In this document: in pieces, positions 1 through 25,683 of the stretch
Position numbering within the stretch: position 1 is the first letter of the stretch
Layout: each line of letters begins with the position of its first letter
NCBI GenBank assembly: GCA_964521375.1
Contig: CAZFRK010000001.1
Location: 1 to 38,583, forward strand
Length of the DNA: 38,583 nucleotides
Source: an uncultured Rhodobacterales bacterium
GTDB lineage: Bacteria > Pseudomonadota > Alphaproteobacteria > Rhodospirillales > Rhodospirillaceae
Reading direction: 5' to 3'
Made by a program: the position numbers and the translations under genes
Notes under the pieces: model-generated
What the model saw: only the letters and a program-made list of their open reading frames with translations
Told to the model about the DNA's origin: nothing
The model's database searches: none

Positions 1-1026
1 GGAGAACTTGATGCCGCCGTCGGCGATCATCGGAACGCCGGACGCCTTGGTGACGGCGCGCACGTCCATGATGGCCGACAGCTGCGGCACGCCGACACCG
101 GCGACGATGCGGGTGGTGCAGATGGACCCCGGGCCGATACCCACCTTCACGGCGTCGGCCCCGGCGTCGATCAGGGCGCGGGCGGCGTCGGCGGTGGCGA
201 TGTTGCCGGCGATGACCTGGGCTTCGTTGGACATCCGCTTGATTTCGGCCACGGCGTCGATGACGCCCTTGGAATGGCCGTGCGCCGTATCGACGACGAT
301 CACGTCGACACCGGCGGCGAGCAGGGCCTCGGCGCGCTTCATGCCGTCGACGCCGGGACCGGAGGCGGCGGCGACGCGCAGGCGACCCTGCTGGTCCTTG
401 CAGGCGTTGGGATAGTTCTGCGCCTTTTCGATGTCCTTCACCGTGATCAGGCCGATACAGCGGTAGTCGTCGTCGACCACCAGCAGCTTCTCGATGCGGT
501 GCTTATGCAGGAGCATGCGGGCTTCCTGCTGGCTGACGCCTTCGCGCACGGTGACCAGGTCGCCGGTGGTCATGAAGGTCGAGACCGGCTTGGCCATGTC
601 GTTGGCGAAGCGCACGTCGCGGTTGGTCAGGATGCCGACCAGCTTCTGGCTGCCGCGGTCGACCACCGGAATGCCCGAGATCTTATGGTCGGCCATCATG
701 CTCAGCGCGTCGGCCAGCGGCTGCTCGGGATGGATGGTCAGCGGGTTGACCACCATGCCCGACTCATAGCGTTTCACGCGGCGGACTTCCTCGGCCTGCT
801 CCTCGATGGAGAGGTTCTTGTGGATGACGCCGATGCCGCCGTTCTGGGCCATGGCGATGGCCATGCCGCTTTCCGTCACCGTGTCCATGGCCGACGACAC
901 CAGCGGAATCCCCAGCTCGATGGTCTTGGTCAGGCGGGTCGTTGTCTGGGCCTGCGCGGGCAGGACTTCGGACGCCGCCGGAACCAGCAGGACGTCGTCG
1001 AACGTAAGAGCTTCAGGGATAACCAT
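1..1026 (-). CDS. guaB: IMP dehydrogenase, N-terminal ~342 codons (3' end runs off the window)
   Basis: Absent from the ORF track because no stop lies inside the window. Hand translation of the reverse strand from ATG 1026..1024 gives [23 protein letters not shown]...[14 protein letters not shown]...IGVIHKN, a CBS pair region, VVDTAHGHS and [24 protein letters not shown]...[11 protein letters not shown]. These are canonical IMPDH blocks including the catalytic Cys loop. Confidence 0.95.
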
Positions 1027-8377: not shown

Positions 8378-8394
8378 CCCAAAGCGAGGTTACG

Positions 8395-9027: not shown

Positions 9028-9116
9028 GAGCACAGCCATACTGCCGAAGGTCATTGCCGCCGACGCTGGCGGCGAGATGTTACGGTAAGTACATGCATGT
9101 TCAGGGAGCCAGTGTC

Positions 9117-9437
9117 ATGAGCCGCACGGACAAGCTGGTCCTCGGGACGGTCAACGCCCCCTGGAAGCGCAGGATCGAGGCGCAAGACCTTGCAGAGGCC
9201 ATCGCCAACAAGGCAGTGCAGTCCAACCTGGTCCATGCGACCACTTTCTTCACCGAAGTGCAGCCGCATCTGATATTGGGCTTTGCTAAGGAACATGGCA
9301 TCGATGAGGAAGTTCTGAAGGACTCCTATCGTATGGTCGTGGCTCGCACCAACGAGCGAAATCCGGACCTTGAGAAGGCGCTTGAGTTTCACTCCGCTGA
9401 CGGGGAGGCCGCTGATGATCCGATGTGTAACCCCTGA
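9117..9437 (+). CDS. Hypothetical protein
   Basis: ATG 9117 with GGGAG 8 nt upstream (track ORF 9054..9437 trimmed). I recognise no motif. Confidence 0.4.
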   Translation: MSRTDKLVLGTVNAPWKRRIEAQDLAEAIANKAVQSNLVHATTFFTEVQPHLILGFAKEHGIDEEVLKDSYRMVVARTNERNPDLEKALEFHSADGEAADDPMCNP

Positions 9438-9657
9438 ACAGCAGATGGCCGCCGTTCGTGCGGTGTGCCGTCGTCGCGGCTTGGCGGGTGACGACCTCGA
9501 TACGCCGTCCAATGACGGGATGCGTCGGACGGTGAAGAAGCGCCTGCTTCTCCGGAAGCTTGAGGAGAGCCAGAGGGTTCAAGGACGCGCTCCCATTTTC
9601 CCGGCAAACTTCTGAACACCTCACCGCTTTTCACGCTTTCGTGCCGGCGGTGTCTTG

Positions 9658-10860: not shown

Positions 10861-11112
10861 TCAAAGGCTCCAACATGGGGCGTCTTTAGCATCCATATTC
10901 TCGGCTAATCGCACAACCTTAAACAGGATGCAGGTCGTGAAATCTTGGAAGGCTAACGCTTCTCTTGGAATATGTAAGAGCTCTACCGGACAGGCACCAT
11001 CTGGAGTCCCGAGCCGGGAACAGTAAATATCTGTACCCTCCGCGATCTCCTCTGTACCCGCCTTAGCGTCGTTTTTACTTGTTGATTCCCGAGTCCAGTC
11101 GAGGGAGAATCA

Positions 11113-12441
11113 TTGCCAAAACCCTCAGCGGACGCCGGTGAAATGCAGGCAAAGCCCCATCTTTGGCCGGGCCGCCCGAAGCTCCTTCCGGGAGAGAGTC
11201 TCTCTTCTTGGTTTGGGCGAGTGGCCGCCGCCAACGCCTTGACACCCGACGAGCTCTATCGGGTGGTGGTCCCGGGCGCGCACCTGCACAGTCGCGACCT
11301 CGACCGCGAGGCGTGCGAGAGCCTGATGGAAACCATGACATCCAACACCGGCCAGGAGCGGCGCGCGTTGGACGATGCGGTTCTGAGTCGGTGGCTTGGC
11401 ACCCTGTACGGGGAAGATGACGGCCGCTGTAGGCTTCCGTGGCTGCCGCCGATCGGCCGTCATAACCACGCTAAGTCGTTCGGGCAGCAGTACTGTCCGC
11501 AGTGCCTCGTGACCGAAAAGACCCCCTATTTCCGGCTCGAATGGCGGCTGTCCTTCATGACCGCCTGTCCGCGACACCTCACGCTGCTCATCGACCGCTG
11601 CCCGAAGTGCGCCGAGCCCGTCATCCCACTGCGGACACTACGTCACCAGGGCCGCCTCCTCTGCGGCAAATGCCATGGCGATCTCGCTGAGGCCGAGTCG
11701 GTCCCGGTACCCTGGAGCAGCCTGGCGCTGCAGACCCGCCTTCGCCAGGTCGCCGGCGAAGGCTGGGCGGAAGACGGCGATGGGCGCCCCGTGTTCGGCC
11801 TGGCCTATTTCGCATTAGCCCGGGCCATCTTCCGCCTCCTCTGTTCAAGCACAACGGCGCGTGCACTGCGGGCATGGGCGGCGGAGGAGGCCGACCTCGA
11901 CATTCGCGTGGAGCACATTCCCAGGGTGAAGGAGGTGGAGCGACTGACCACGTCCCGGCGCCACGACCTCCTTCAGCTGGCTTGGGTTTACCTTCGGGAC
12001 TGGCCCCATGCGCTCATCGAAGCCTGCCGTAAGAACCACATCCCGCAATGGCACTTGTCGCACCATCGCGAGGCACTTCCCTTCGCCTTTGCGGAAGCCG
12101 TCCTTCCGGCCTTGGCCGCTCCAGTTCGTCGCGTAGATGCTGCAGAACTGGAGGCGGCAAAGGAGTTCCTGGTCCGCCGGGGCTTTGTCCCGACCTACGA
12201 CGCGCTTCAGGGCCTCCTGGGCGTCAAGTTCGAGGCTAACCGGCACGTCGCCGAACCGGCCGACGAGCGAGCGTCCCACGGAACGGGGCGCTACTGGAAA
12301 CTGGATGGCGTCGATCCCGATGTTCGTCGCGCCGTACTGCACGAGGCCCACAAGAACGGAGAGAACGTTTCGGCGTGGGTTGAACGGACTCTTTGCCATG
12401 CCCTGAAAAAAACGAACGTCGTTTTCACGTCTGACGGGTAA
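11113..12441 (+). CDS. tniQ: TniQ/TnsD-family target-selection protein
   Basis: N-terminal TniQ signature WPGRPKLLPGESLSSWFGRVAAANAL. Zinc-ribbon Cys pairs CPQC...CPRH...CPKC...CGKC. TTG 11113 has GAGGGAGA upstream, and ATG 11143 is an alternative start. Confidence 0.85.
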   Translation: MPKPSADAGEMQAKPHLWPGRPKLLPGESLSSWFGRVAAANALTPDELYRVVVPGAHLHSRDLDREACESLMETMTSNTGQERRALDDAVLSRWLGTLYGEDDGRCRLPWLPPIGRHNHAKSFGQQYCPQCLVTEKTPYFRLEWRLSFMTACPRHLTLLIDRCPKCAEPVIPLRTLRHQGRLLCGKCHGDLAEAESVPVPWSSLALQTRLRQVAGEGWAEDGDGRPVFGLAYFALARAIFRLLCSSTTARALRAWAAEEADLDIRVEHIPRVKEVERLTTSRRHDLLQLAWVYLRDWPHALIEACRKNHIPQWHLSHHREALPFAFAEAVLPALAAPVRRVDAAELEAAKEFLVRRGFVPTYDALQGLLGVKFEANRHVAEPADERASHGTGRYWKLDGVDPDVRRAVLHEAHKNGENVSAWVERTLCHALKKTNVVFTSDG

Positions 12442-12477
12442 GACTCAAAGCAGAGCCAACACACGTGGGAGTCGGAC

Positions 12478-13113
12478 ATGCCAGTCCGCAAGGTCCCTCG
12501 CAACTACTGCAACGTCACCGGTCTGACCGCAATTCCCGGGCAGCGTTCCGTGCGGGTGGAATCGACTCTGGAGCGCGACTTCGTCTTGCGCACCATCTTC
12601 CACCCGAAGTTCCGCCACATCGAGGAACAGCCCCTGGTCATTCCGGTCCCGGAGACGGCCGGCAAGTACATCCCGGACTTCCTGGTGACGTGGGAGGGCC
12701 GGCGCGAGCTGATCGAGGTGAAGCCCGCAGCGAAGCTTGTCTCAGACAAGGCGCGCCTCAGGCCCCGCTTTGCCGCCGCGAGAGCCTACTGCCGATCAAG
12801 CGGCCTTTCTTTCCGCGTCGCGACGGAGGCGCACATCCGGGGGCCATACCTGGATAACGCTCGCTTCCTCATGCCCTACAGGCATCGCGAGGTCGATGAT
12901 GACCTGCGGAATCGCCTGCTGGGATCCCTGCAGGGCGGAGGGCCCTGCTCGTTGGAAGAGCTCCTTCAGCGGGCCACCGGGAGCGACCGCCTCGCTGCTC
13001 TGCCTGTCCTATGGCACCTACTCGCCAACTTCCGCGTCCGCGTCGACCTGAACGCCCCCATCGACATGAACAGCATCGCCAAGCCGGCCAGGGGGAAGCC
13101 ATGGGCCGCTTGA
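12478..13113 (+). CDS. tnsA: TnsA-like endonuclease
   Basis: Restriction-endonuclease-like E...D...K arrangement: ESTLERDF, YIPDFLV, LIEVKP. 211 aa, sits directly upstream of tnsB and overlaps it by 13 nt. Confidence 0.8.
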   Translation: MPVRKVPRNYCNVTGLTAIPGQRSVRVESTLERDFVLRTIFHPKFRHIEEQPLVIPVPETAGKYIPDFLVTWEGRRELIEVKPAAKLVSDKARLRPRFAAARAYCRSSGLSFRVATEAHIRGPYLDNARFLMPYRHREVDDDLRNRLLGSLQGGGPCSLEELLQRATGSDRLAALPVLWHLLANFRVRVDLNAPIDMNSIAKPARGKPWAA

Positions 13114-14990
13114 GCTTCCAACCCGGCGCTGTTGTCCGCTACCAAGGACGATCCTGGATCATCCAGCGAGCCGTCAGCGCCACTGAAGTTCTTCTCGAGC
13201 GGCGCTCCGACCGGCACCGGCAGACGGCGCAGGTGAGCGTGCTTCAGCCGAACAGCCCTGTGGCCGAAGAGCCTGCGGTTGTCCACGCGGCGCGCGCGGA
13301 AGCAGAGCTGGATGAAGCCAGGAGGAGGCTCCAAATTATCCAACCTCTCCTTCAGAAGGCACGGGGAAAGACGGCGCGACAGGCCGAGGTCAGTGCCCAG
13401 ACGGGAGTTCCAGAGCGGACCCTGAGGCGCTGGTTACGCGCCTACACAGCGCGTCACCGACTATCTGATCTTGCTCCGCGACGGACCATGCGAGAGATGC
13501 CGACACGCGTTCCCAGGCGCCTGGAGAAGCTGATGGCCAAGGTCATTGAGCAGCACTGCGTCGGTCCGCGCCCCCTCAGCCAGGTAGCTGCCCATCAGAT
13601 CTTACAGCGGGAGTGCCGGAAGCTGCGTATCGACGCACCCTCCATCAACACCTTCCGTGATCGGGTTCACAAGGCGCGCAAGGCCCTCCGCGAGAAGGCG
13701 CCGCCCCTTGAGCATCAACCTGTGAGAGGCCCCTTCCCCGACGCGCCTTTTCCCCTGAGCTGCATCCAGATCGACCACACGCCCGCTGACGTCTCTTTGG
13801 TCCACGAGGAGTCACGGCTCCCCATCGGCCGCCTGTGGATGACCGTGGCCATCGACGTCTACTCGCGCATGATCATGGGCTACTACCTGTCCCTCGACCC
13901 GCCCTGCACCTTCTCCGTGGCCATGTGCATAGCCCAGGCAGCCCTTTCCAAGGAGGCCCATCTCGAGCGCTTCGGCGTCGGCGGGACATGGCCCACCTGG
14001 GGCAAGGGCATCACATGGCACGCGGACAACGCCCAGGAGTTTCGCGGAAACACCATCGCGCGCTTTTGCGAGGAGCATGGGATCCACCTTCTATGGAGGC
14101 CGGCGGGGAAACCGAACTTTGGCGGCCACATTGAGCGTCTGCTCGGGACGTTCGCTGAAGACTTCAAGAAGCTCCCCGGCTCGACTCATCGTCCAGACAA
14201 GAAGGATAAGCACGACCCGGACAAGACTGCTGCGATGACGCCAAGAGACTTCGAACGCCGCCTGTTGGAGTTGATCGTCAACGACTATCACGTGAGAGAG
14301 CACTCGGCTTTGGGCTGCTCACCACTGCAGAAGTGGGAGCAGGGCATCATTGGCCACGGATCGCAAAAGGGGACGGGGCTCCCCGAGCCCGTACAGGATC
14401 CCCTTCGCTTCTGGCGCGATTTCCTTCCGTTTGAAGAGCGGACCGTCCAGCGGGAGGGCATTGTCTGGGACGGCATCACCTACTACGCCGACGCGCTCCG
14501 CCCCTGGATCCGGGCGTCGAAAGGCGGCCAGATGCAGAAGTTCGTCGTCCGTCGCGACCCCCGTGACATAAGCCGGATCCTGTTCCTGGATCCGGAGATC
14601 AACGACTACCTGGAAATTCCGTACCGCGATATCAGCCGCCCCTCGACGTCGATCTGGGACTGGCGGGCTGCAAAGGCCGCCCTGCGCCGTGAAGGACGCG
14701 CGAACATCGACGAAGACGCCATCTTCGAAGCCCAGGAGCGGATGGACGCTCTGGTTGCGCAATCGGTCAGCGAAACCAAGAAAGCACGGCGGCGCGATCA
14801 ACGCCGACGGATAGGCGCACCTCTGCCGGCAGCTATCGAGAAGGCAGCCCAGGACAAAAGTCCGGCCTCTCCTCCTGTCCCGGCCGCCAACCACCCACAA
14901 CGCCTGGCCCTGATCGTCGATAACACGCAGTCAGACGACGAATACGACATTCCCGACGACGTCTACTCAACTCGGCTGGAGGAACTGTGA
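13101..14990 (+). CDS. tnsB: TnsB-type DDE transposase (Mu/rve superfamily)
   Basis: ATG 13101 (MGRLSFQPGAVV...). N-terminal HTH regions, then a DDE core with IQIDHTPADV and WHADNAQEFR, and an acidic C-terminal tail. Confidence 0.9.
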   Translation: MGRLSFQPGAVVRYQGRSWIIQRAVSATEVLLERRSDRHRQTAQVSVLQPNSPVAEEPAVVHAARAEAELDEARRRLQIIQPLLQKARGKTARQAEVSAQTGVPERTLRRWLRAYTARHRLSDLAPRRTMREMPTRVPRRLEKLMAKVIEQHCVGPRPLSQVAAHQILQRECRKLRIDAPSINTFRDRVHKARKALREKAPPLEHQPVRGPFPDAPFPLSCIQIDHTPADVSLVHEESRLPIGRLWMTVAIDVYSRMIMGYYLSLDPPCTFSVAMCIAQAALSKEAHLERFGVGGTWPTWGKGITWHADNAQEFRGNTIARFCEEHGIHLLWRPAGKPNFGGHIERLLGTFAEDFKKLPGSTHRPDKKDKHDPDKTAAMTPRDFERRLLELIVNDYHVREHSALGCSPLQKWEQGIIGHGSQKGTGLPEPVQDPLRFWRDFLPFEERTVQREGIVWDGITYYADALRPWIRASKGGQMQKFVVRRDPRDISRILFLDPEINDYLEIPYRDISRPSTSIWDWRAAKAALRREGRANIDEDAIFEAQERMDALVAQSVSETKKARRRDQRRRIGAPLPAAIEKAAQDKSPASPPVPAANHPQRLALIVDNTQSDDEYDIPDDVYSTRLEEL

Positions 14991-15874
14991 TGCGGCAATT
15001 CGAGCTCTTCCCGCGTTCGGACTACCTCCAGTCGGGCCTTCCTGAAACGGGCGATCGGTCACGGATTTCCCAGCTGTTCCGGACCGGGTGGGTGCCCTAT
15101 CCGGTTGGGCTCAAATGCCTGGACATGCTCGACCAGCTACTCCACCGCCCTCCAAGCCATCGCCCGCCCTGTCTGATCCTTCACGGCGACAGCAACAACG
15201 GCAAGACGACCATCGCGCGGAAGTTCCGTAAGGACAAGAACCTGGACACGGTGGCCACGAGCGACCAGGCCCACATGCCGGTGCTGATGGTCGAGACACC
15301 AAGCAGTGACTTCAACATCTTCCTCAGCCTCGTTTTGCGCGCCCTGAATGCGCCGGATCCAGGTTCCAGTCGGGACCGCCGGCTCCACCAGGTGCTCAAC
15401 CAGCTGCAGGCCACCCGGGTGCGCATGCTGATCATCGACGAGATCCACAACATCCTGTGCGGCAAGACAGATCAGCGGAACGCCTTCATGAACGGGCTGA
15501 AGTTCCTCAGCAACCAGCTGGAGATCCCAATGGTCCTGATCGGCACCATTGAGGCTATGCGCGCCGTGCAAACAGACCCTCAGCTGGGGAATCGTTTCGA
15601 GCCGTGCCAGCTCCCGCGATGGAAGAGCGATGCCAGCTACGCGCAGTTCCTGGGCGCCCTCTGCGCCACCATGGGCCTGCAGGAAGGCGGCAACTGGAGG
15701 TCGCCCCGCCTGACCAGCCGCTTCCACGCGATGACCGAAGGCCTGACCGGCGAAACCTGGAGCTTGATGGCTCGTGCGGCGGAAACGGCTATTCGCCTCG
15801 GAACTGAGGTGATCGACGACGCCACCCTGGACAAGACGCACTGGGTTCTACCGAGTGAGCGCCGGAGGGGCTAG
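14990..15874 (+). CDS. tnsC: TnsC/TniB-type AAA+ ATPase
   Basis: Walker A in LHGDSNNGKTT and Walker B in MLIIDEIHN. The start overlaps the tnsB stop (GTGATG). Confidence 0.88.
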   Translation: MRQFELFPRSDYLQSGLPETGDRSRISQLFRTGWVPYPVGLKCLDMLDQLLHRPPSHRPPCLILHGDSNNGKTTIARKFRKDKNLDTVATSDQAHMPVLMVETPSSDFNIFLSLVLRALNAPDPGSSRDRRLHQVLNQLQATRVRMLIIDEIHNILCGKTDQRNAFMNGLKFLSNQLEIPMVLIGTIEAMRAVQTDPQLGNRFEPCQLPRWKSDASYAQFLGALCATMGLQEGGNWRSPRLTSRFHAMTEGLTGETWSLMARAAETAIRLGTEVIDDATLDKTHWVLPSERRRG

Positions 15875-15911
15875 GAGTGGAATCCAATTCTCTGCTGATC
15901 GCACACGCGCA

Positions 15912-16262
15912 TCATTCTCGAGGGGCCTGGAGGTCTGCGATCGCCTCCAACAACTTCGCTATAGACTTTGCCCCCTCCGGAGTCTCATCCCAGATGCGGC
16001 GCATGCCAGACTGAGCCACCTCCCATTCAGGGGGTGCGTCCTCTGTCGGGGCCTCTAGACGCGGTACGCTTACCCCTAGAACCCTGCAGACCTCCACGAC
16101 ATTGTGGCTGAAGGTCTTGAACCGACCCGTACAAATTCTGGCGACTTGGCTTGGGTGAACGTTCGATATTCGCCCAATCTCGGCCCATGACAGTCCCGAG
16201 CTTGAGCGGGCCTGCGCGATCTTTTCCCCAAGATCGGTTAATTGCTTGCGAGTAGGCTTCAT
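15912..16262 (-). CDS. XRE-family HTH transcriptional regulator
   Basis: MKPTRKQLTDLGEKIAQARSSSGLSWAEIGRISNVHPSQVARICTG is a classic XRE helix-turn-helix. It is divergent from the NADAR gene, and the start (16262 versus an upstream Met) is uncertain. Confidence 0.7.
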   Translation of the reverse strand: MKPTRKQLTDLGEKIAQARSSSGLSWAEIGRISNVHPSQVARICTGRFKTFSHNVVEVCRVLGVSVPRLEAPTEDAPPEWEVAQSGMRRIWDETPEGAKSIAKLLEAIADLQAPRE

Positions 16263-16297
16263 GCAAATTAGCATGCATAGTGACGAGCAAATTTGCA
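16262..16297. promoter_or_regulatory. Operator-like inverted repeats in the XRE/NADAR divergent region
   Basis: TGCAAAT (16262..16268) and ATTTGCA (16291..16297) are inverted. The perfect palindrome GCAAATTTGC (16287..16296) abuts the NADAR Shine-Dalgarno AAGGAGG. Confidence 0.45.
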
Positions 16298-16308
16298 AGG
16301 AGGCTTTG

Positions 16309-16791
16309 ATGGACGAAATTCGCTTCTATCGCGCGAATGAAAAGCCGTACGGCGCGTTCAGCAATCTCTACCGCCGAACGATAGTGTTTGAAGGGGAGGT
16401 GTTCGCAACAAGCGAGCATGCCTACCAAGCAGGCAAGGCGCGAAAACCCGCCGTGCGGAAATGGCTCATGGACGCACCGACCCCGGCGCTACTCGCAATG
16501 GCGGCTCATGGGCTCTACTACTGGGATGTCGCGCCCGGCTGGTCATCAACGAAATTCGACCGAATGAGGGCCGTGCTACGGGCCAAGTTCACGCAACATG
16601 AGGATTTGCGCGAACTGCTTCTCTCTACTGGCAATGCAAAGCTCATAGAGACCGCGACGGTGGATAACGATGTCAACCGCCTCTGGGGGGAAGTTAAAGG
16701 GGTCGGCAAAAATATGCTTGGCGTTCTTCTAATGGAACTCCGCGACGACTTGCGAGAAGACGCAGACAAGGCTTACATTGCCGCGGAATAG
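16309..16791 (+). CDS. NADAR-family protein (YbiA/DUF1768-like; ADP-ribose/N-glycosidic-bond hydrolase family)
   Basis: ATG 16309 is preceded by AAGGAGG at 5 nt. Motifs FYRANEKPYGAFSNLY, FATSEHAYQAGK and LWGEVKGVGKNMLG are typical of the family. Confidence 0.88.
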   Translation: MDEIRFYRANEKPYGAFSNLYRRTIVFEGEVFATSEHAYQAGKARKPAVRKWLMDAPTPALLAMAAHGLYYWDVAPGWSSTKFDRMRAVLRAKFTQHEDLRELLLSTGNAKLIETATVDNDVNRLWGEVKGVGKNMLGVLLMELRDDLREDADKAYIAAE

Positions 16792-17723
16792 CGCTCGCCG
16801 CCTTCCGACAGGAGGCTACGGACGTACTCGGCATCCCGGTGCCGGAATAATCCCCTTGCACCAGCGAACGCGCAGTTCTCTGCCGCCAGCCGTTGCCCTG
16901 CGGTCACCCCCCTTAGCAGACGTGCCGCCTTAAGCGCATGCGAGCTCAGATGGTTGGTCAGCAGCCAGTCTATGACTCCCACGCTGACCATGTCTCCCGA
17001 GCCGCACGTGTCTACGACGGCGGGCGCGCTGAACGATGGACACCAAAACACGTCCGTTGCGTCGCGCAGCTCAAGACCTGCGGCCCCATAGGTGACGATC
17101 CGCACACAATCCGTGACCTCATCGGCTAGGCGCTCGCCCAGCCGGTCGTCGGAATACTTAAGGATCGAGCATAACGAAATCGCTTCTTCGAAAAGATGAT
17201 CGTCCTCAATTTTGGACGGCTCAAAGAAGACAACAGCGCCAGAGGCGCGAGCAATCTTTAAAGCCTCCAATATCCCGTGGGAGAGACGGTCAACATAGAA
17301 GACGCTACAGTTGGTGAGGACGGGCAAGGCCTGAGCTAGCTCCAGCTCACCGATGGGATGATATCGAGGAAAATCCTCGTTTGTCTCCGGACAGACGAAG
17401 CTGAAGCTGTGCAAACCGAGACTTGGGTTGAGGGTCTGCGCGAGCACCGGAGATCGAAGACCCGGCCGACGGTAGATGTACTCCACGACCGCGCCCGCCT
17501 GGATAAACTCGTTGATGAGCCTTTCACCCTCACCGTCGTCACCCAGAGCAAGCACAGGCGCCACGTTTCGGTGCAACATCGCCAACGAGAGCAGCACATT
17601 TCCACACGAGCCGCCAAGGGCTTCGCCAGCCAGTCCGCCATCTGTGTACAAGCGGTCCAGAACCGTAAATCCTGTTCCGGAGACATCGGCCCGCCAGTTG
17701 CGAACGCATTTTGAAATGGACAT
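16773..17723 (-). CDS. PfkB/ribokinase-family sugar or nucleoside kinase
   Basis: N-terminal GG motif LGGSCGNVLLSLAML and C-terminal anion-hole/catalytic motif VVDTCGSGDMVSVG. The 3' end overlaps the convergent NADAR gene by 19 nt. Confidence 0.88.
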   Translation of the reverse strand: MSISKCVRNWRADVSGTGFTVLDRLYTDGGLAGEALGGSCGNVLLSLAMLHRNVAPVLALGDDGEGERLINEFIQAGAVVEYIYRRPGLRSPVLAQTLNPSLGLHSFSFVCPETNEDFPRYHPIGELELAQALPVLTNCSVFYVDRLSHGILEALKIARASGAVVFFEPSKIEDDHLFEEAISLCSILKYSDDRLGERLADEVTDCVRIVTYGAAGLELRDATDVFWCPSFSAPAVVDTCGSGDMVSVGVIDWLLTNHLSSHALKAARLLRGVTAGQRLAAENCAFAGARGLFRHRDAEYVRSLLSEGGERYSAAM

Positions 17724-17744
17724 ATGAGCCGGAAGATCAGTTTG

Positions 17745-19682
17745 TCAGTGGCTGTCAAGCGCCAGCAGTTCACTGTCTATGCAAACGCGCCCTTCTGGTG
17801 AGTGTACCAGAGAACGCAGCACTCTGAGAAGGGCCTCCGGGCCGGTGGGCCTGTCTCCGAAAAGCGACCAGCATCCGTCCGGCGCATCACAAACATCACC
17901 GACACTGATACCGAATGCGTGAGAGAGGAAAGCGTGATCGTTGCCGCTCCGGGAGCCGCTATCACCGAAGCAGAGGATCTCGCTTCCGGGCTTCGCAGCA
18001 ACCCGCAGCGCCTCTACAACCTTAAGCTTGCTAGACGCAGCGGGTACGACGTCATAACTGTGGCCCGAGCTCGTGATGCGAAGATCTCCGGAGGCCAAAA
18101 CAGGGCACTCCGAAAAGTCTCCGACGAACCTGTCGGGGTGCTTCAGGGCATCCATCCCAATCGTGATCTGGAGAGCTCGAACCTTGAAGTCGTGCGCCTC
18201 AAAGAGATCACGTCGAGTCCACAGCCAAGCAGCCGCGCCCTCTATTGCTGGATGTCGCTCAATGAGCTCGTGCTCAATATCCACGTCAGCTGTCCGCAGT
18301 AGGCCGCCGTTGTAGTAGCCGACCACCACGGATCCAACCATCTCCGGCGGAAGGAGACTCCGCAGTTCCTCTCCAACGGAACCACCGCGCCCTGTCGCTA
18401 TGCCGATTTCGACGCCCGCATGGTGGAGCCGAACTATCTGCTCGATGATTCGGGGCTCTGGAGGTCCGAAGCGGCAGTCCGTAGCGACGAGAGTACCGTC
18501 GTAGTCGAAGACTGCGCCGCCAATTTCAGCCTTTAAAAGCGCCTCTACGCGCTCCTGGTTGGTTGAAGAAAGAGTCTCGCAATCGGCCTCCTGACCCCCT
18601 GTGCGCGCCATTGCGGAACGCTTATGGCGTACGCTCGTGGTCAGTCGGCTGGCCACTTGGGCCAAAGATCCGGCCTCATATATTGATCGACCGAAGTCGC
18701 CAACACCAGGCTTCCCCGGATCGATTTCCAGTATAACGCCGAGCCCCTCAATGATGCCGAAGCCATCAATCAAAGCCGACGCGTTATCCAAGCGACTGCA
18801 AGAACCATGGTCCAAGGCTGCACGGCGAATCGAAGAAGGCAGAACGGCATCAATTGCTCGCCACGAAGACCGAGAATCCACCCCAGTGAGCCCCAATACG
18901 AAAGTCTCTTCGGCCCGATGGTGCAGCCAAGTGTGGCGGCCGTGCGCTAGGTTGCGGATATCTGTCGTCTGAATGGGGCACAGTGCGGCTTCCCATAGTG
19001 ACGTATCCAGCAACACAGCCAGCGGACGCAGAAGCGGATCTGCTGCTAAGATGAGCGTGTCGGTCCTTCGAATGCCGTCAAATAGCTCCCTCACTTCTTC
19101 TCGAGAAATTGGTTCTAGACACCGGGCGAGCCGCTCGGCCAATAACGACAAGAGAGCGTCCCGGCCGAGTGGTTCTCGCGAAGCCAGATCGCTCCCTAAA
19201 AGCAAGGCGGTGACTGAGGCCATCAATGAATGCGTGGCGAGATAACCGTCCTTCGCATCGGCCACGGGTACGAGATGAACCGTGCCATTTCCACGCCTGG
19301 CAATCTCTGCGGCTGCGCCTTTCTCGTTCCTGGTAACGAGGTGGAGTCGTCTGCAACCTCGGTCGAGGGCAGCCTGGGCAGCGGCTGAAATATCGGCGTT
19401 GTCTCCGCCGGCACTGAACAGCCACACCTCGCTTTCCGCAAGGCCCTGCAACTCGAGGACAGCTTGCATTGGAGTCTGGACGGATGTCGGGCCAAGGCTA
19501 AGCGTATCGCGGCAGCGCGCAAAGTACTCCGCAGCAACTAATGATCCGCCGGACCCGACCGCCAGCGCGTGCCGGCCGCCCCCCTGCCTCAGCGCCGTCG
19601 CCAAACAAGACGGGTCAAATGTCTCAAACAGGTTTAGCGTACTGGGAAGTGCGTCCAGTTTTTGGTTGAATACATTCAGCAT
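17745..19682 (-). CDS. Fusion protein: N-terminal (tandem) SIS phosphosugar-binding domains + C-terminal HAD-IIB phosphatase
   Basis: SIS-like HALAVGSGGSLVAAEYFA and VWLFSAGGDNADISAAAQAALDRGCRRLHLVT. HAD motif I GAVFDYDGTLV, motif II GIATGR and motif IV CFGDSGSRSGNDHAF (the GDxxxxxND of Cof/OtsB-type IIB). Confidence 0.8.
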   Translation of the reverse strand: MLNVFNQKLDALPSTLNLFETFDPSCLATALRQGGGRHALAVGSGGSLVAAEYFARCRDTLSLGPTSVQTPMQAVLELQGLAESEVWLFSAGGDNADISAAAQAALDRGCRRLHLVTRNEKGAAAEIARRGNGTVHLVPVADAKDGYLATHSLMASVTALLLGSDLASREPLGRDALLSLLAERLARCLEPISREEVRELFDGIRRTDTLILAADPLLRPLAVLLDTSLWEAALCPIQTTDIRNLAHGRHTWLHHRAEETFVLGLTGVDSRSSWRAIDAVLPSSIRRAALDHGSCSRLDNASALIDGFGIIEGLGVILEIDPGKPGVGDFGRSIYEAGSLAQVASRLTTSVRHKRSAMARTGGQEADCETLSSTNQERVEALLKAEIGGAVFDYDGTLVATDCRFGPPEPRIIEQIVRLHHAGVEIGIATGRGGSVGEELRSLLPPEMVGSVVVGYYNGGLLRTADVDIEHELIERHPAIEGAAAWLWTRRDLFEAHDFKVRALQITIGMDALKHPDRFVGDFSECPVLASGDLRITSSGHSYDVVPAASSKLKVVEALRVAAKPGSEILCFGDSGSRSGNDHAFLSHAFGISVGDVCDAPDGCWSLFGDRPTGPEALLRVLRSLVHSPEGRVCIDSELLALDSH

Positions 19683-20833
19683 GTACGGCCCGCCTCACTA
19701 TAGCTTTCGTACATCGGCCCCGACAAAATCAGGTGGACCATCATGTCTGGCCTATCTGGCGAGGGCGCGGGGACACCCTCAATGGCATAGCTCTCCATTT
19801 CCAGATATTGGACAGCCATACCATGCTCTATAGCTGCCATGAGCGCGCCAGCCGCCAGAACCTTGCTACCGATTGGGGAGAGCACCATGCGCGGCTCAAA
19901 GGTGCCTTCCATTGTCCGATCAAATCGGACCTTCAGGGTCGATAGCGTGCGGTAGCAGTCTAGAGGGTTCTTCTCGGACGCATATACTACGTCTCTAGGA
20001 TCAACCAGCCACTCATTGACCAGGGCAATCTCGTATTCGGATAGAAGGTCGTCAGCACGCCGAGGATTCCGCGAGGGAAACGGAAGGAGCGGGCAGATCT
20101 TGTAGCATCTGCCAATCGCGATCCCGATCTGGGCCAACGCTGACGCCCTCCCCCGCGCTAGCTGGGGGATCCAGATCTGCGCCAGGTCTTGCTCTCCATC
20201 CGCTTCGGCAGGCAGCGCAAAACCTTTCACGGCACTGGGGCGGCTCCACGGCGTCCCCACAATCCTGTCGTCCATCTCCGGGTTGGAGACAATCATGAGA
20301 TGGAAGCTTCTGTTGGCTGCGGACTCGCAGTCCTCTAACAGCATCCTTGCTGCGGGAAAACCCACGCCGATGGAAAGAGCGCTCAGGTCAAGAATAACAT
20401 CGGTGACTTCATCCGGAACCTGATATTCCGTCAAGAGCTTAACTATACGAGCCCCTCCGACCGGCGCACTGTCATCAGCAAAAATGTCTACCCGAAGGAC
20501 GGAACAATCGGGAACAATTCTCCTCAACGTCTCCTCATTTTCATCCGCCAGCGCCAGAAGATCGTCCGACGGCGCAGGTCGTTCTTCACGAATGAAAATG
20601 GCACATAGTCGGGACCCCATCACATCAGCCAGCATTTGTGCAATCCGCCTGGATCTGGGATCGAAACCGGCAGCAGCAACAAGGAGAACACGTCTTGCGG
20701 GATTTCTGAAATAGTCTCTCGCGAAATCTTCAACGTCTTCGTCAAAGTTCGTTATACAGTTCTCCCAATGACTACGCATCTTCAAGTCCCGCAACATCTC
20801 GAAGGTAGCTGACTTTTTTTGGTATGAACCCAC
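19676..20833 (-). CDS. Uncharacterised 370-385-aa protein (two Rossmann-like halves; no family recognised)
   Basis: Long ORF embedded in the operon. The stop overlaps the SIS-HAD ATG (ATGCTGA). Candidate starts are 20833, 20797 or 20779; the last gives an 8-nt overlap with the NTPase stop. Confidence 0.7.
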   Translation of the reverse strand: MGSYQKKSATFEMLRDLKMRSHWENCITNFDEDVEDFARDYFRNPARRVLLVAAAGFDPRSRRIAQMLADVMGSRLCAIFIREERPAPSDDLLALADENEETLRRIVPDCSVLRVDIFADDSAPVGGARIVKLLTEYQVPDEVTDVILDLSALSIGVGFPAARMLLEDCESAANRSFHLMIVSNPEMDDRIVGTPWSRPSAVKGFALPAEADGEQDLAQIWIPQLARGRASALAQIGIAIGRCYKICPLLPFPSRNPRRADDLLSEYEIALVNEWLVDPRDVVYASEKNPLDCYRTLSTLKVRFDRTMEGTFEPRMVLSPIGSKVLAAGALMAAIEHGMAVQYLEMESYAIEGVPAPSPDRPDMMVHLILSGPMYESYSEAGRTC

Positions 20834-22679
20834 CTCGATGGAAGGTGAGCCCGTGAACCAAGCATACCGTCCCAGTCAGCTCTACCAGAGCCCAAAGCTT
20901 TCCCCCTTGTCCGTAGTTCCGCTCAATCGTAATTGCGCCGTTCGCGATGGCATGCTTAAGAATGATCGCAAGATCGTCATCGGCCGGAAGCGAGTCCATC
21001 TCTTCCTCAAGGATGCCGATCGCATTTGCGCCATAGCCGAGAGGAGCATTCGGAAGAGTGGATTCGGCCATGCATTCTCTACCTATCGCGTCAACCATCT
21101 CTCTTACGCGCTGCGCGTAGGCGAACGGCCAGTCGTCCATTATCTCCTTTGCCTTCCTCACAAGAACGGATTGTTGCTCCCGGGCAGAGAGAGCTAGCGG
21201 TCTGTTTCGAATCGCGCGAGTTTCGATACTTGCAACCAGAGCCCCTGTAAAACGAAGGAATCGTTCTGCGTTTCCGTCGCTGGCATCGCAAATTCTGTCA
21301 ACGCCATAATGTAAAGGCCGCCCATATTCATGATAGAGATGGAGCCGCGCCCCATTTGCGACGTAAGAATCCGCCTTTAAGGGCATTGCGATATCTGCGT
21401 CCAACTCTTCGAATAGGGAGGGCGTGGAGCGGGCGACCCTGATCGCATAGCGATGGAGTAGAATGCGCGTCATCGCAAGGTGGATGTCTTTTCCCTTGTC
21501 ATAAGACTTGGACCGCCCTAAGTACTCGGCAACTATATTTTCAATCTCTCGCCGCCGCGACTTTGTAACGCCGAGACTTTCCTGCTCCTTAGAAACCTTT
21601 TCTTCGAGCTGCCTAAACTGGCTGTCTGTTAGTGACGGAGGCTTGCTCGGAAGCAAACGATCAATGTCGGTAACGTTGCCAATTACCTCCACCCGAGGAA
21701 GGTATCGCCCTGCCATATCACGCGCCACCGCTCGAAACTGCCGACGAACCGAATCCGATTTTTCGTGGTCCTGCATGCGAATGTCGATGAAGTCGCGACC
21801 AATAGAACGATTATGCGTCGGCTGACTGCCAGAGGAACGCAAAACGGCACCAGGGCTCAGCGCGTCCAACCGCATCATCAACCAGCGTCCGAACTTCATC
21901 TCTCGATGAGATAGCATTCCGAACATGGCTTCGAGTTGATCGTGGTGCAGCGCATGAATATCGTCCAGCATGACCAGAGGAACCAATTCTATCGCCTCGC
22001 CCTTCCACTCTATGCGAATCCTGCTAATGGCATCGAAAGGAGCGTAGGGCGCCGTTGCGTCTTTCGGCAAATCTTCAAGTTTCGGTGGACGGAGTCCCGC
22101 ACCCACGGAGTAGATGGCGCGCTGTACCGCGAGAGCCCTATCTCGGATACCGGCGGTCGAGAGACCGCCAATCTGCTCTAGATGAGCCTCGTAATTGGCA
22201 CGCGGAACGAACTCGATTTCCTGGATGCTGCGGGTGTTGTTAACTGTCAGGTTCCTGATCAGCCCAAGCACAGCGCGGGCCTGCACCAACCAGAACGCAA
22301 GCTTTGCTTTTACCGCCGGCTCGTACGGCAATTCCCAGAACTCGCGATACTCCGACTCCATCGGCACCCTCACGGCCGCTACATGAGGTCTGCCATCCCG
22401 AAGAAAACCCGCCCTCGCCAAATCGGCGGCCAGTGACCTATTGGTGAGATTGGTCTCGTCCCTCAAGATGATTTCCACCATCTTGAATTCGGCCAACCTG
22501 GCCAGCGTGGTCTTACCGCTGCCGGGTGAGCCAATTATGCGCACCGGCAAATCGAACACTTCGTCTTTATGTTTGCTCGTCGCGAGGAATGTCGTCAGCG
22601 GCTTGGGACTGACGATCGACAGAAAAGCCTCATCATCGCGAACATACTCAGTTGCTCGCCGAAGGAATGGATTCGCCAT
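20772..22679 (-). CDS. Large P-loop NTPase (AAA+/STAND-like) with ~400-aa uncharacterised C-terminal region
   Basis: Walker A in VRIIGSPGSGKTTLARL and Walker B in LVPLVMLDDIHAL. The ATG lies 6 nt after the upstream PRTase-like stop. Confidence 0.85.
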   Translation of the reverse strand: MANPFLRRATEYVRDDEAFLSIVSPKPLTTFLATSKHKDEVFDLPVRIIGSPGSGKTTLARLAEFKMVEIILRDETNLTNRSLAADLARAGFLRDGRPHVAAVRVPMESEYREFWELPYEPAVKAKLAFWLVQARAVLGLIRNLTVNNTRSIQEIEFVPRANYEAHLEQIGGLSTAGIRDRALAVQRAIYSVGAGLRPPKLEDLPKDATAPYAPFDAISRIRIEWKGEAIELVPLVMLDDIHALHHDQLEAMFGMLSHREMKFGRWLMMRLDALSPGAVLRSSGSQPTHNRSIGRDFIDIRMQDHEKSDSVRRQFRAVARDMAGRYLPRVEVIGNVTDIDRLLPSKPPSLTDSQFRQLEEKVSKEQESLGVTKSRRREIENIVAEYLGRSKSYDKGKDIHLAMTRILLHRYAIRVARSTPSLFEELDADIAMPLKADSYVANGARLHLYHEYGRPLHYGVDRICDASDGNAERFLRFTGALVASIETRAIRNRPLALSAREQQSVLVRKAKEIMDDWPFAYAQRVREMVDAIGRECMAESTLPNAPLGYGANAIGILEEEMDSLPADDDLAIILKHAIANGAITIERNYGQGGKLWALVELTGTVCLVHGLTFHRGGFIPKKVSYLRDVAGLEDA

Positions 22680-22685
22680 GACGTG

Positions 22686-23876
22686 TCAGCCGTGTCTATC
22701 GCGACGGAAGAACAATGAAACCATCTTTCTACCCTGATGACCACCAGTCTCCGCCCAAAGGAGCGGGATGGAATTATTAGGAGTGTTATGCTCGAGGACT
22801 ACTGGGAGAGCACAATTAGCATATCCGAACCGCATGTCGGCCTGGCCGGCCTCCCGGCAGTGCTTCTCAAGGCGTATAAATAGATCGTGATCATAATATT
22901 TCTGCGCCAGTGAAACAATGGCATCATCTTCACTGTTCGTTGGGGCTGTGGAGGTGGGTTCATCTCCAACATGTGCGACCTTTATATCATTTAGCAACAG
23001 AAGACCTTCCGTGATAATGGCGCTCCGGTAGCTCTTATCGCGCATTACCTTGTCGGCTTCCTCCACACGTTCGAGCAGCGCTTCTCGTGCTTGAGCCGTC
23101 GAAATATAATGATGTATGTGTAGATTGTAATTTTCCGACAGAGGAAACTTGTCCCCTAAAGAACGTTTAGCCTCCGCCACAATGGCTTCGAACTTCGCAA
23201 GCTTTCCTTTGGGCCTTCCCTCCGGAAATCGGATAAAAGTAGTGCCTGAAGCGGTGAAATCATCTATTAAGTATACGTCATCAAACTTAGCCCCTATTCC
23301 AAGGTCGCCCTGAATATCATCTGCCAAGCTTCTCCATTTATCATGATCAATGTTCATCATGGGAACCACCTGCTCCTGAGACAGGCGGCCTGCGTTTGCC
23401 CGGCGAAGAGCATCAATCCGGCTGCCATCGCTAAGACCAACAAAGAGGCAGCGGCGCAACCTTTTTGCGAATGCGTGAGCAACCTGAGGGGACTTCCAAA
23501 CCTCGTATGGCCTCACATCAAATTCTTCGGCGACAGATCGACGCAGATAAGGAATTACAACCTCTGGCACAAACGTCTCTATGAGCCGCTGCATCTCCAG
23601 AGCCGATACGTAAACTAGGCGAGTTTTGATGAATTCATAAGCGTGAGACCTGTCCTCTTCATCGAAGTGACGCAGCCAAGATACCAAGGTCTCTAGGAAG
23701 CGCACGCCAGCGCGAAAATCGGAATATCCGTCATATTTCATAGACGACATGAGAGTCAGCCATGAGTACTCCTTTGTGGCCTTCTCGTTGTCCCACCTCA
23801 TCACGCTGGCAATGAGGTTAAGAGCGAGGATATTTATCATGATCGACTCTTGCCCGTACGTCTTATCCCGCTGCAT
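22686..23876 (-). CDS. Phosphoribosyltransferase-like protein with long helical N-terminal domain
   Basis: PRPP-binding loop DDVYLIDDFTASGTTF. The track ORF extends to TTG 23972, but that codon is preceded by TCTCCTCCT with no SD. ATG 23876 or 23840 is the more plausible start. Confidence 0.8.
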   Translation of the reverse strand: MQRDKTYGQESIMINILALNLIASVMRWDNEKATKEYSWLTLMSSMKYDGYSDFRAGVRFLETLVSWLRHFDEEDRSHAYEFIKTRLVYVSALEMQRLIETFVPEVVIPYLRRSVAEEFDVRPYEVWKSPQVAHAFAKRLRRCLFVGLSDGSRIDALRRANAGRLSQEQVVPMMNIDHDKWRSLADDIQGDLGIGAKFDDVYLIDDFTASGTTFIRFPEGRPKGKLAKFEAIVAEAKRSLGDKFPLSENYNLHIHHYISTAQAREALLERVEEADKVMRDKSYRSAIITEGLLLLNDIKVAHVGDEPTSTAPTNSEDDAIVSLAQKYYDHDLFIRLEKHCREAGQADMRFGYANCALPVVLEHNTPNNSIPLLWAETGGHQGRKMVSLFFRRDRHG

Positions 23877-24333
23877 CTCAAAATGAGCGGCAGCGCCAAG
23901 CACAATCCTGGCACGATCGCAGGCGTTTTCAAACCTTGTAGATTGGGGCGAGTATCGGAGACGCTTCGACAAGGAGGAGAAGACGCCGCGCGGCCTGCCA
24001 ATGGGGACATGAAACTTGATATTCGCCTGGGTACGGTCGGGTTAATGGTGACAGTGGCAGCTATGCCCTCCGTCTGCGGACGGGTTCCCCGCTCCGGGGC
24101 AGTTCAGCCTCCCTGAACTCGCGATCCCAGCAACCCGCTTTAGGGGGCGCTGAGGAGGGCGACCGGAGGAATGTTCCGATGAGACGGAAGAATGCCCCCC
24201 CCTCGGCCGCTTATTTTTCGCCCTGAGCTAGCGCGTTATCATAACGATCGAAAATTTTACATAGGAAGTTTGACTACGCTAATTCGGCGCAATGCGTTTG
24301 GTCTGAAAGATTTATTTGTAAACCAGTTGGCAT

Positions 24334-24343
24334 CTGACGTCAG
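24334..24343. promoter_or_regulatory. Perfect palindrome CTGACGTCAG in the AT-rich region upstream of the cargo operon
   Basis: Read directly. It lies ~360-460 nt upstream of the candidate PRTase-like starts. Confidence 0.3.
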
Positions 24344-24488
24344 CCTTGATGAAATCATAAATGAACTGAGCAGACATAACCGTAGGAAGCGGTAGCGTCC
24401 CAGTCTTTGCCTGACGAGCAGGCGCGGCCGGAGGATGAGGACTGCGCCTGTTCCCATCAGGCGCTGCTGAATGCTGGTAGGCCATCAG

Positions 24489-25307
24489 CTAACGCGTCGG
24501 CCCAGGCGGCTCCACGAGCGGATGGCGAAGGATCTCCATCGTCTCCTTCGCCTGTGCGAGCCAGCGGCGGCATTCGCGATTATCGGCGAAGGAAACGCCA
24601 ATCACCTCTTCCTGATTGACGTCGTAGAGGGCATAGCGCGGTTTGCCATGCGAAACGCTGATGCGGAAGAGGAGCGCCGGATGGCGCGTCTCGAACCGCA
24701 CCGCCCGCGTTTCCGGCGACACCACAGGCAGATTGTCCTTGAACAGCGAGCGGAACTCGTCGTCGATCTCGCCATGAAGCGCCAGGCGCTCCGCATGGTC
24801 GTCCGGCCTTAGACCATGGAACGAGTCCAGGACGTTGGCCAGCGCCACTTCCCTGGCCATCGGGAGAAGCTCATATGCGGGAGGCGTCAGCTGCTCGGCG
24901 CCGGCATCGCCGTCCACCACGTGGTGCCTATCCGGCATCAGGATCAGGATCTTGCGGAACAACCCGGTGAGCCCGGCCAGGACCTCGCTCTCGGAGATTG
25001 GCTCCACCATCGCATAGGTGTTGGCGCGGCACGTCTGGTTCCACCGATGTCCAGCAACAGCGCGTAGCGCATCGACGCGCTCCCGGTGCCACGCGGCCCA
25101 GACGTAGGCCTTCCAGCTACCGTCCTTTTCGGGACGAAGGCGGGCTAATCCGAGCCCGTCGGCTGGGACATCCAGGTGCCGTCCCAGCTCGGAGAGGAGC
25201 TTTCGATGCTCGCCGGCCATCTGTGGCAGCGGGAGGCCCCGGCAGTAGTCTATGATTTCCTCGAATGTCTTCCTCGCCAACGGGTCCTCACTACGCCGGT
25301 GCGCCAT
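24489..25307 (-). CDS. Hypothetical protein (272 aa) next to the distal transposon end
   Basis: ATG 25307 is preceded by AGAGGGGGA. I recognise no motifs. A hairpin CAGGCGC-N18-GCGCCTG lies just downstream (24419..24450). Confidence 0.6.
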   Translation of the reverse strand: MAHRRSEDPLARKTFEEIIDYCRGLPLPQMAGEHRKLLSELGRHLDVPADGLGLARLRPEKDGSWKAYVWAAWHRERVDALRAVAGHRWNQTCRANTYAMVEPISESEVLAGLTGLFRKILILMPDRHHVVDGDAGAEQLTPPAYELLPMAREVALANVLDSFHGLRPDDHAERLALHGEIDDEFRSLFKDNLPVVSPETRAVRFETRHPALLFRISVSHGKPRYALYDVNQEEVIGVSFADNRECRRWLAQAKETMEILRHPLVEPPGPTR

Positions 25308-25555
25308 CACGTCCCCCTCTTCTGCTAACCGGTGTCCAGGTTGGAGAAGACGCTCTCGCGACGCAAGCCGCCAAACGGCACTGGCCGGTTGAGCTCCGTT
25401 CGGCTAGTTCGGATGCGGGGAGACGTTTTCTGCTCGCACTGGAATCCCGCAAGACTTCTGCAGGGGCGCATTGAGTTCCATTTACGCGAGACGGCTGCAT
25501 CGCCTGCTGGTCGATACCTACAGCCTTAAAATCCCACAGTACGTCCGCAATCTTC

Positions 25556-25678
25556 GGCCATTTTCAACTGGTGTTTTACAGGTTCCGGCCACGCTTAACT
25601 GGTGGCTTTGGCCATGACGAACTGGTGCATCAACGGCCCTGACTCCGGCTCACCGGCCATCTACATCTGAATCTGACA
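25556..25678. repeat. Transposon end distal to tRNA (L-like, more dispersed): four putative TnsB-binding repeats
   Basis: Read on the reverse strand. The terminal site is TGTCAGATT-CAGAT-GTAGA-TGGCC. The other three are CAGTT-CGTCA-TGGCC, CAGTT-AAGCG-TGGCC and CAGTT-GAAAA-TGGCC. The GGCCA cores start at 25556, 25587, 25610 and 25655. Confidence 0.8.
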
Positions 25679-25683
25679 GTTCG
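25679..25683. repeat. Target-site duplication, right copy (GTTCG)
   Basis: GTTCG lies immediately after the terminal ACA (25676..25678). Confidence 0.85.

Follow-up and report, generated by a model that had tools for sequence, protein, structure and literature searches.

The 38,583-nucleotide stretch of contig CAZFRK010000001.1 analysed here (assembly GCA_964521375.1, from an uncultured Rhodobacterales bacterium; hereafter the window) carries, on its minus strand at 19676..20779, a gene encoding a stand-alone single chain of two CARF domains, which belongs to the clade CARF6 and has no fused effector domain. This assignment draws upon the open reading frame (ORF) and its junctions, the start shared with homologues, a PADLOC CARF6 profile, an AlphaFold2 model and a structural match to the protein Can1. 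The gene forms part of a conserved cassette of 8 kb (15912-23972), in which it follows the genes for a phosphoribosyltransferase-like protein (PRTase) and an ORC/Cdc6-like ATPase. The best explanation, to which a probability of about 0.6 is given, is that the tandem CARF chain senses a ligand and, as a regulatory subunit, governs the ATPase and the PRTase, where we infer both the ligand and the output. Nearly all that is known of CARF domains concerns the reception of cyclic oligoadenylates made by type III CRISPR-Cas.

The profile PDLC01910 of PADLOC, labelled ‘CARF6--CARF_CARF_CARF’, matches the protein over its full length with an E-value of 1.3e-106, aligning residues 22–376 of the 385-amino acid (aa) open frame with profile positions 2–348 of 348. 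The sister CARF6 profiles PDLC01916 (E 1.4e-80) and PDLC01924 (E 7.4e-30) also match. The family is already catalogued, therefore, as CARF6 in PADLOC, a label that reportedly stems from the CARF census of Makarova et al. 2020. Members of the CARF6 clade represented by PDLC01910 have the same multi-CARF architecture without an effector domain, and no difference from them is detectable. Clustered at 50% identity, the family found by an exhaustive HMMER search comprises 607 clusters, of which 152 have E < 1e-30, and almost all members are 350–390 aa long; longer, effector-fused homologues were searched for and none was found, which is weak evidence that they do not exist. Named homologues are all annotated as ‘hypothetical protein’, an annotation that can be corrected now that the PADLOC profile and a confident predicted fold assign the protein. 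The initial annotation of this DNA had found no recognisable family. That description stands for Pfam and NCBIfam, where the protein has no match, for PDB chains, where a sequence search with phmmer and an hmmsearch with a 75-sequence profile gave no informative match and found no solved CARF, and for the ESM Atlas, where only unnamed clusters were returned; it fails for PADLOC.

The predicted fold leads to the same family. AlphaFold2, run on an alignment of 75 sequences reaching down to 26% identity, returned a whole-chain model with a predicted local distance difference test score (pLDDT) of 95.1 and a predicted template modelling score (pTM) of 0.93. The model has two alpha/beta halves, comprising residues 30–177 and 199–353 (residues are numbered throughout on the 367-aa protein that starts at ATG 20779, unless the 385-aa frame is named). 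When the model was compared with 48,161 chains in an exhaustive VIA-align structure search, the top rank went to Can1 (PDB 6SCE), with a Z of 14.8 and an rmsd (root-mean-square deviation) of 3.1 Å over 232 residues. This superposition covers model residues 30–329, and so both halves, at a sequence identity of 11%. Ranks 1–18 are all occupied by CARF proteins (Z 8.6–14.8), with Can2, Csm6, Card1, Cam1, VC1899, Cdn1, Csx1-Crn2, Csa3, Sso1393, Sso2081 and Cami1 among ranks 2–18, and SAVED domains rank below them (Z 7–8.3, rmsd 4–5.4 Å, spanning residues 11–332).

Most single-domain matches fell on the C-terminal half, where residues 192/199..329 align to Can2, Csm6, Cam1, VC1899 and Cdn1 with Z 9.7–11.7 and rmsd 2.3–2.6 Å, and for this reason the N-terminal half was folded separately. 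The isolated half gave a pLDDT of 86.6, and its own search put CARF proteins at all of ranks 1–14 (Z 8.8–11.8; Can2 11.8, Card1 10.8, Csm6 10.7), with generic Rossmann folds appearing only from Z 8.5 downward. As the whole-model and N-half searches each rank CARF proteins first, both halves are considered to be CARF-like, and the N-terminal CARF domain can be placed at 20249..20692 (residues 30–177) and the C-terminal CARF domain at 19721..20185 (residues 199–353), both on the minus strand. An hhalign comparison of the two halves found no sequence trace of an internal duplication. The predicted arrangement of the halves resembles the tandem CARF pair of Can1, a DNA nuclease of the Thermus thermophilus type III CRISPR system that is activated by cyclic oligoadenylate and likewise holds two CARF domains in one chain. 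Can1, however, has nuclease domains and acts downstream of Cas10, whereas the CARF protein of the window lacks an output domain. The initial annotation had proposed two alpha/beta halves and, tentatively, a Rossmann- or CARF-like sensor; the model agrees with the former, and the PADLOC profile together with structural ranks 1–18 bears out the latter. A confident match to an unrelated enzyme family was looked for in the structure and profile searches and did not emerge. The top matches of a Foldseek search (C-terminal domains of cation-chloride cotransporters, and UspE or tandem USP proteins) were rejected at TM 0.22–0.26 and rmsd 17–20 Å. A tandem USP (HUP)-like fold appears in the VIA-align search with Z 7.6 at an rmsd of 14 Å, and these USP and transporter matches are discounted as a generic two-Rossmann resemblance.

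The gene itself is probably shorter than was originally described. A 385-codon open frame with a GTG start (20833) does exist at 19676..20833, but on the minus strand, the plus-strand reading of this interval being ruled out by its many stops. Because database homologues are 361–372 aa long and their alignment begins at the equivalent of Met19 of the 385-aa frame, the true start is most likely ATG 20779, giving a protein of 367 aa, and the N-terminal extension from GTG 20833 is probably untranslated. At the upstream junction ATGCGTAG overlaps the TAG stop of the ATPase gene (20772–20774), and at the downstream junction ATGCTGA links the TGA of the CARF gene (19676–19678) to the ATG, at 19682, of a gene encoding a fusion of two SIS domains and a HAD domain (SIS-SIS-HAD, or SIS-HAD). 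The overlaps that had been reported at both ends are thus present in the sequence. The CARF gene is translationally coupled to the upstream ATPase gene and to the downstream SIS-SIS-HAD gene, and hence sits in an operon of coupled genes.

Two segments singled out in the initial annotation, RVLLVAAAGFDPRS and VTDVILDLSALSIGVGF, fall within the N-terminal half, the former as beta1 and the beta1–alpha1 loop and the latter as beta4 and the beta4–alpha4 loop. Conservation was scored on the 75 homologues, with loop positions taken from the DSSP string of the model, and both loops proved near-invariant. The first, G38-F-D-P-R42 (20654..20668, minus strand), is conserved at 85–99% overall (G38 99%, F39 97%, D40 92%, R42 92%). 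In the second, D127...D131-x-S133-A-L-S136-x-G138 (20366..20401, minus strand), D131 and the S/T at position 133 are each conserved at 100% and D127 at 93%. The equivalent beta4'–alpha4' loop of the C-terminal half bears the motif [ST]301-P-x-G-[ST]-[KR]306, a CARF motif of the G-[ST]-K type, with S/T in 100% of homologues at position 301 and K/R in 99% at position 306; the copy in the window reads S301-P-I-G-S-K306 (19862..19879, minus strand). Mean identity in the four canonical loops is 0.57–0.81, against 0.46 for the whole protein, so that, as judged from the alignment, conservation within the family is highest in the canonical ligand-contact loops. A likeness of the second segment to a D-x-T-G-G-T-K-type loop had been suggested earlier. 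Its [DN]x[ST] portion is indeed found in the N-half loop, whereas the lysine-bearing G-[ST]-K lies in the C-terminal half, where it had gone unnoticed. At residue 351 (19727–19729), in the last strand of the C-terminal half, the window copy carries Ile at a position that is Trp in 91% of homologues.

In Makarova et al. 2014 the consensus of CARF motif II is reportedly [DN]x[ST]xxx[RK]. The N-terminal half has D131-x-S133 and no conserved basic residue at the +6 position of the motif; the C-terminal half has G-S-K306, with Leu/Pro at the D and S/T positions. A similar divergence of motif II occurs in other tandem or SAVED-type pairs. The splitting of the motif across the halves fits a single asymmetric pocket built from both, and such a pocket would be formed from G-F-D-P-R and D-x-S of the N-terminal half and S-P-x-G-S-K of the C-terminal half. 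The SAVED domains of Cap4, Cap5 and CalpL, in the cyclic-oligonucleotide-based anti-phage signalling systems (CBASS), are also fused CARF-like pairs with one asymmetric pocket, an arrangement that allows non-symmetric ligands. Unlike the present protein, SAVED domains are effector-fused and linked to a CD-NTase; here they give the weaker structural match (Z 7–8.3), and no CD-NTase was found in five genomes that carry the cassette.

The genes upstream of the CARF gene complete a triad. The ATPase (20772..22679, minus strand) is an ORC/Cdc6-like P-loop protein that matches PF24389 at 28.7 bits, against a cut-off of 27, and its translation contains a Walker A motif, GSPGSGKT, and a Walker B motif, LVMLDD. 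The PRTase (22686..23972, minus strand) is of the PRTase-CE family (PF24390, E 1e-20) and matches PADLOC PRTase_III-A (E 1e-13); its translation contains a phosphoribosyl pyrophosphate (PRPP) loop, VYLIDDFTASGTT, and G-x14-PNNSIP, a near-match to the motif G-x14-PNNxP defined for retrons (PMC12746101). The two families carry consecutive Pfam accessions. Downstream of the CARF gene, the SIS-SIS-HAD(IIB) fusion of 645 aa (17745..19682, minus strand) has a C-terminal HAD-IIB phosphatase domain (TIGR01484) with a visible HAD DxDGT motif, and a profile search with its N-terminal 330 residues found structures of double-SIS, GlmS/NagB-II-like isomerases/deaminases (8EOL, 3HBA; E 5.5e-4). It is followed by a PfkB-family sugar/ribose-phosphate kinase (16773..17723, minus strand; PF00294, E 1.7e-14; DTxGxGD motif visible), for which the nearest NCBIfam model is ribose-1-phosphate kinase, at a score below the cut-off of that model. 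A NADAR N-glycosidase (16246..16791, plus strand; PF08719, E 3.8e-25) is convergent with the operon and overlaps the 3' end of the PfkB gene.

The association of these genes was followed in 62 related loci from named genomes, which were searched with the genes of the window, together with 10-kb flanks, and in which the CARF protein is 48–79% identical to that of the window. The ATPase and SIS-HAD genes were each found in 61 loci, the PRTase and PfkB genes each in 58 and NADAR in 57, and the gene order is the same wherever the contig reaches far enough. In all, the cassette was seen in the 62 genome loci, two further genomes and five plasmids. Distant copies (CARF identity 24–38%) occur in complete genomes and plasmids of Rathayibacter, Paenarthrobacter, Burkholderia, Paraburkholderia and Bradyrhizobium, the distant plasmid copies falling in Actinomycetota and Betaproteobacteria. 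These distant copies retain five core genes, with SIS-HAD, PfkB and NADAR shifting in position. No PfkB match was present within the stretch fetched for the Burkholderia gladioli locus, and in four other distant loci a NADAR gene was sought within 9 kb but not found. What does not shift is the triad: PRTase-CE, ATPase and CARF lie side by side in this order throughout, the distant copies included, and the ATPase gene lies directly upstream of the CARF gene in 61/62 loci and in 8/8 distant loci. The initial annotation had supposed that a sensor links sugar/nucleotide enzymes to the NTPase and PRTase-like proteins, and such a link would fit this strict co-occurrence.

Individual loci show how far the remaining genes can vary. 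In the locus L018 (4500-13200) the PRTase, ATPase and CARF proteins are 66–73% identical to those of the window, whereas SIS-HAD and PfkB are only about 30% identical, are encoded on the opposite strand and flank the triad on either side. This locus looks like a natural module swap, in which neither of the two enzyme functions seems to have disappeared, each having apparently been taken over by a replacement. Conversely, in L069, L073 and L074 NADAR is 72–74% identical where the CARF protein is 24–30% and the ATPase 25–34% identical. The NADAR gene of B. gladioli runs in the same direction as the SIS-HAD gene, whose start it overlaps.

A comparison of pairwise distances (mirror-tree) over 33 loci gave a similar picture. 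CARF distances track ATPase distances (r 0.93) and PRTase distances (r 0.89) best, partial correlations with CARF are about 0.44–0.45 for these two genes and 0.15 or less for the others, and NADAR is largely decoupled. The co-variation of CARF, ATPase and PRTase agrees with the fixed adjacency of the triad, yet it counts as soft evidence, because the relatives share their descent and recombination parts adjacent genes less often. A split into two modules seen in the first mirror-tree run was mostly due to L018 and weakened once that locus was removed.

The cassette is mobile and sparsely distributed. It is present in 5/401 sampled genomes of the phylum, many hosts are rhizobia or agrobacteria and it is often plasmid-borne. 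Plasmid copies have a SIR2 gene and integrase genes nearby and, at L069, a second cassette copy lies near weak TniQ and TnsB matches. The cassette moves horizontally on plasmids, Tn7-like transposons and islands. No relatives turned up when 50,697 phage records were searched by tblastn or when IMG/VR was scanned, and full-text literature searches found no paper describing or testing the cassette.

A source for a cyclic nucleotide ligand was sought in five cassette-carrying genomes, two of them 100% complete. There were zero matches to SMODS/CD-NTase and none to Csm1/Cmr2 (Cas10) above the family cut-offs, the Csm1/Cmr2 matches being weak only and in some cases confined to a short C-terminal stretch of the profile. 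Moreover, no cas genes appeared in the 62 loci with their 10-kb flanks, where the search was made with the genes of the window. As the five carrier genomes yielded no CD-NTase and no Cas10 above cut-off, and as no effector fusion was found, the tandem-CARF protein does not count among the usual ancillary receptors of CRISPR or CBASS. It also follows that the ligand is likelier to be made, consumed or cleared by the cassette, or derived from an invader, than to be a cyclic oligonucleotide of CRISPR or CBASS.

How the triad might work is suggested by the retrons. Retron-Eco11 is activated by phage helicases, whereupon PRPP falls and abortive infection ensues (PMC12746101), and the PRTase of this type III-A retron belongs to the same families as that of the cassette (PF24390; PRTase_III-A). 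Since the PRTase-CE family supplies the retron III-A effector and the PRTase of the window nearly matches the retron motif, the ATPase may serve as the invader sensor or switch, the tandem CARF as a small-molecule receptor and the PRTase as the effector. The putative asymmetric CARF pocket would bind a small nucleotide-like or ribosyl-phosphate-like molecule. Since the CARF chain lacks an output domain, binding would be relayed through protein contact, to the ATPase beside it and to the PRTase-CE enzyme. On the model of the type III-A retron effectors, the PRTase-CE might then drain PRPP or transfer phosphoribose, stopping the invader at a cost to growth. The ligand itself could be made, consumed or cleared by the PRTase, PfkB, SIS-HAD or NADAR, or could be derived from the invader. 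The accompanying enzymes are all concerned with ribosyl- or sugar-phosphate and N-glycosidic chemistry, which makes a ribosyl-type ligand made or cleared by the cassette the most attractive candidate, with NADAR as a possible eraser or antidote. We infer each of the steps that lead from the CARF fold to ligand binding, PRTase control and defence.

The parallel with the retron is incomplete. In both systems a sensor module would hold a PRTase effector, on the cassette side by analogy, but the cassette has neither a reverse transcriptase nor multicopy single-stranded DNA (msDNA), and its controllers are instead an ORC/Cdc6-like ATPase and a tandem CARF, accompanied by sugar-phosphate enzymes and NADAR. 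Regulators of the RtcR type (PMC4012209) offer a second comparison, since they too pair a CARF domain with an AAA+-type ATPase independently of CRISPR. In RtcR, however, the CARF and AAA+ parts are fused and the output is sigma-54 transcription, whereas in the cassette the proteins are separate and the ATPase is ORC/Cdc6-like rather than NtrC-like.

Several observations weigh against the reading of the chain as a ligand sensor with control over the ATPase and PRTase. The CARF fold assignment rests on a predicted model, and neither half holds the full [DN]x[ST]xxx[RK] consensus. Many of the conserved residues are acidic (D40, D127, D131, D170, D243, E269, D274 and E327), and the conserved pocket-loop set holds a single Arg and a single Lys. 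Such a set, unlike the basic pockets that receive cyclic oligoadenylates, could mean catalysis or metal binding, and it would argue against a highly anionic ring such as cyclic tetra-adenylate (cA4) or hexa-adenylate (cA6) as the ligand. The co-variation within the triad is confounded by shared descent and gene adjacency, and the cassette has no classical toxic effector besides the PRTase.

A bolder version of the sensor reading is given a low probability. The cassette would be a self-contained immune signalling pathway whose messenger, non-cyclic and of a ribosyl or phosphoribosyl (glycosylamine) type, would be a CARF ligand of a new class. Its production or processing would fall to the PRTase, PfkB and SIS-HAD, its reading to the tandem CARF and its removal to NADAR, in the manner of a ring nuclease, whilst the ATPase would detect the invader.

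The acidic loops lend themselves to a different function, in which the tandem CARF is an enzyme that destroys the signal or a substrate, as a ring nuclease or another hydrolase, and so switches the cassette off. Cyclic tetra-adenylate is cleaved by stand-alone CARF proteins, of which Crn1 is an example, the present chain likewise lacks an effector domain, the ring nucleases Sso2081 and Sso1393 are among its structural matches (Z 8.8–9.3) and numerous acidic, His and Lys residues in loop positions are invariant or nearly so. Known Crn1 enzymes, however, are homodimers of one small CARF with a catalytic Ser/Lys, as opposed to a 367-aa tandem fusion, and the best structural match is the sensor pair of Can1. 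NADAR already provides a plausible clearing activity in most cassettes, and a cyclase that would make a ring substrate was not found in the five carrier genomes. An enzymatic role is hence regarded as unlikely.

It is slightly less probable that the protein senses cyclic oligonucleotides made in trans by type III CRISPR-Cas, by CBASS or by the invader, the cassette then being a free-standing ancillary effector module. Judged by their structure titles, the characterised close structural relatives all bind cyclic tri-adenylate (cA3), cA4 or cA6, and both CARF pocket loops are conserved. Yet the five carrier genomes have no CD-NTase and no Cas10 over the cut-off, the spread of the cassette, on plasmids and transposons, is independent of CRISPR loci, and the conserved pocket residues, with their single Arg, single Lys and many acids, suit such ligands poorly.

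The incompleteness of motif II in each half, and the lack of detectable sequence similarity between the halves, would be expected of a degenerate pair that bridges the ATPase and PRTase as a ligand-free structural adaptor. This is very unlikely, as the ligand-loop positions are the most conserved (D131 invariant, G38 and K/R306 about 99%), which is unexpected for a decayed pocket.

FrlD and FrlB are a kinase/deglycase pair. The combination of PfkB with a double-SIS, GlmS/NagB-II-like domain recalls kinase/deglycase pairs acting on amino-sugar or Amadori phosphates, and many rhizobia and agrobacteria carry the cassette, often on their plasmids, but a metabolic pathway (for example, Amadori-type or amino-sugar catabolism in plant-associated bacteria) with the CARF pair as its sugar-phosphate-binding regulator is the least credible of the proposals, given that no transporter genes lie alongside in annotated loci, that the PRTase belongs to the retron-effector family PRTase-CE, that the distribution is patchy (5/401 genomes of the phylum, plus unrelated phyla) and that genes for TIR, Fic and SIR2 proteins, integrases and Tn7 functions lie nearby.

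The 607 clusters represent a widespread, conserved tandem-CARF family that, as judged from the five carrier genomes, works without CRISPR or a known cyclase and is tied to a retron-type PRTase, an ORC/Cdc6-like ATPase and enzymes of sugar-phosphate and N-glycoside chemistry. The identity of the ligand would reveal what else CARF pockets can read, and could uncover a new small-molecule route by which a PRPP-targeting defence is switched on.

The PRTase ORF, like that of the CARF protein, is probably too long as listed. It comprises 428 aa from TTG 23972, the alignment with homologues starts only at residue 57 and those that are annotated measure 368–372 aa, from which the start is likely to be ATG 23801 (Met58) or ATG 23840 (Met45). 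At the other end of the cassette an XRE-type helix-turn-helix (HTH) gene (15912..16298, minus strand; HTH_31, E 4e-7) is divergent from NADAR and is probably the cassette regulator; it was found by tblastn in 48/62 loci, always just past NADAR.

The transposon genes of the window are shared by none of the 62 loci. Two transposon ORFs, of 273 aa (24489-25310, minus strand) and 205 aa (7539-8156, minus strand), have no Pfam match, and a counterpart of the former was not found in the 62 related loci. Positions 6382-25683 of the window form a block of low GC content (53–64%, against about 70%), which corresponds to a Tn7-like element with tniQ, tnsA, tnsB and tnsC (11113-15874, plus strand). The cassette is cargo of this element, and further cargo consists of two minus-strand genes, one with a TIR domain (6628-7332) and the other for a Fic protein (9658-10860).

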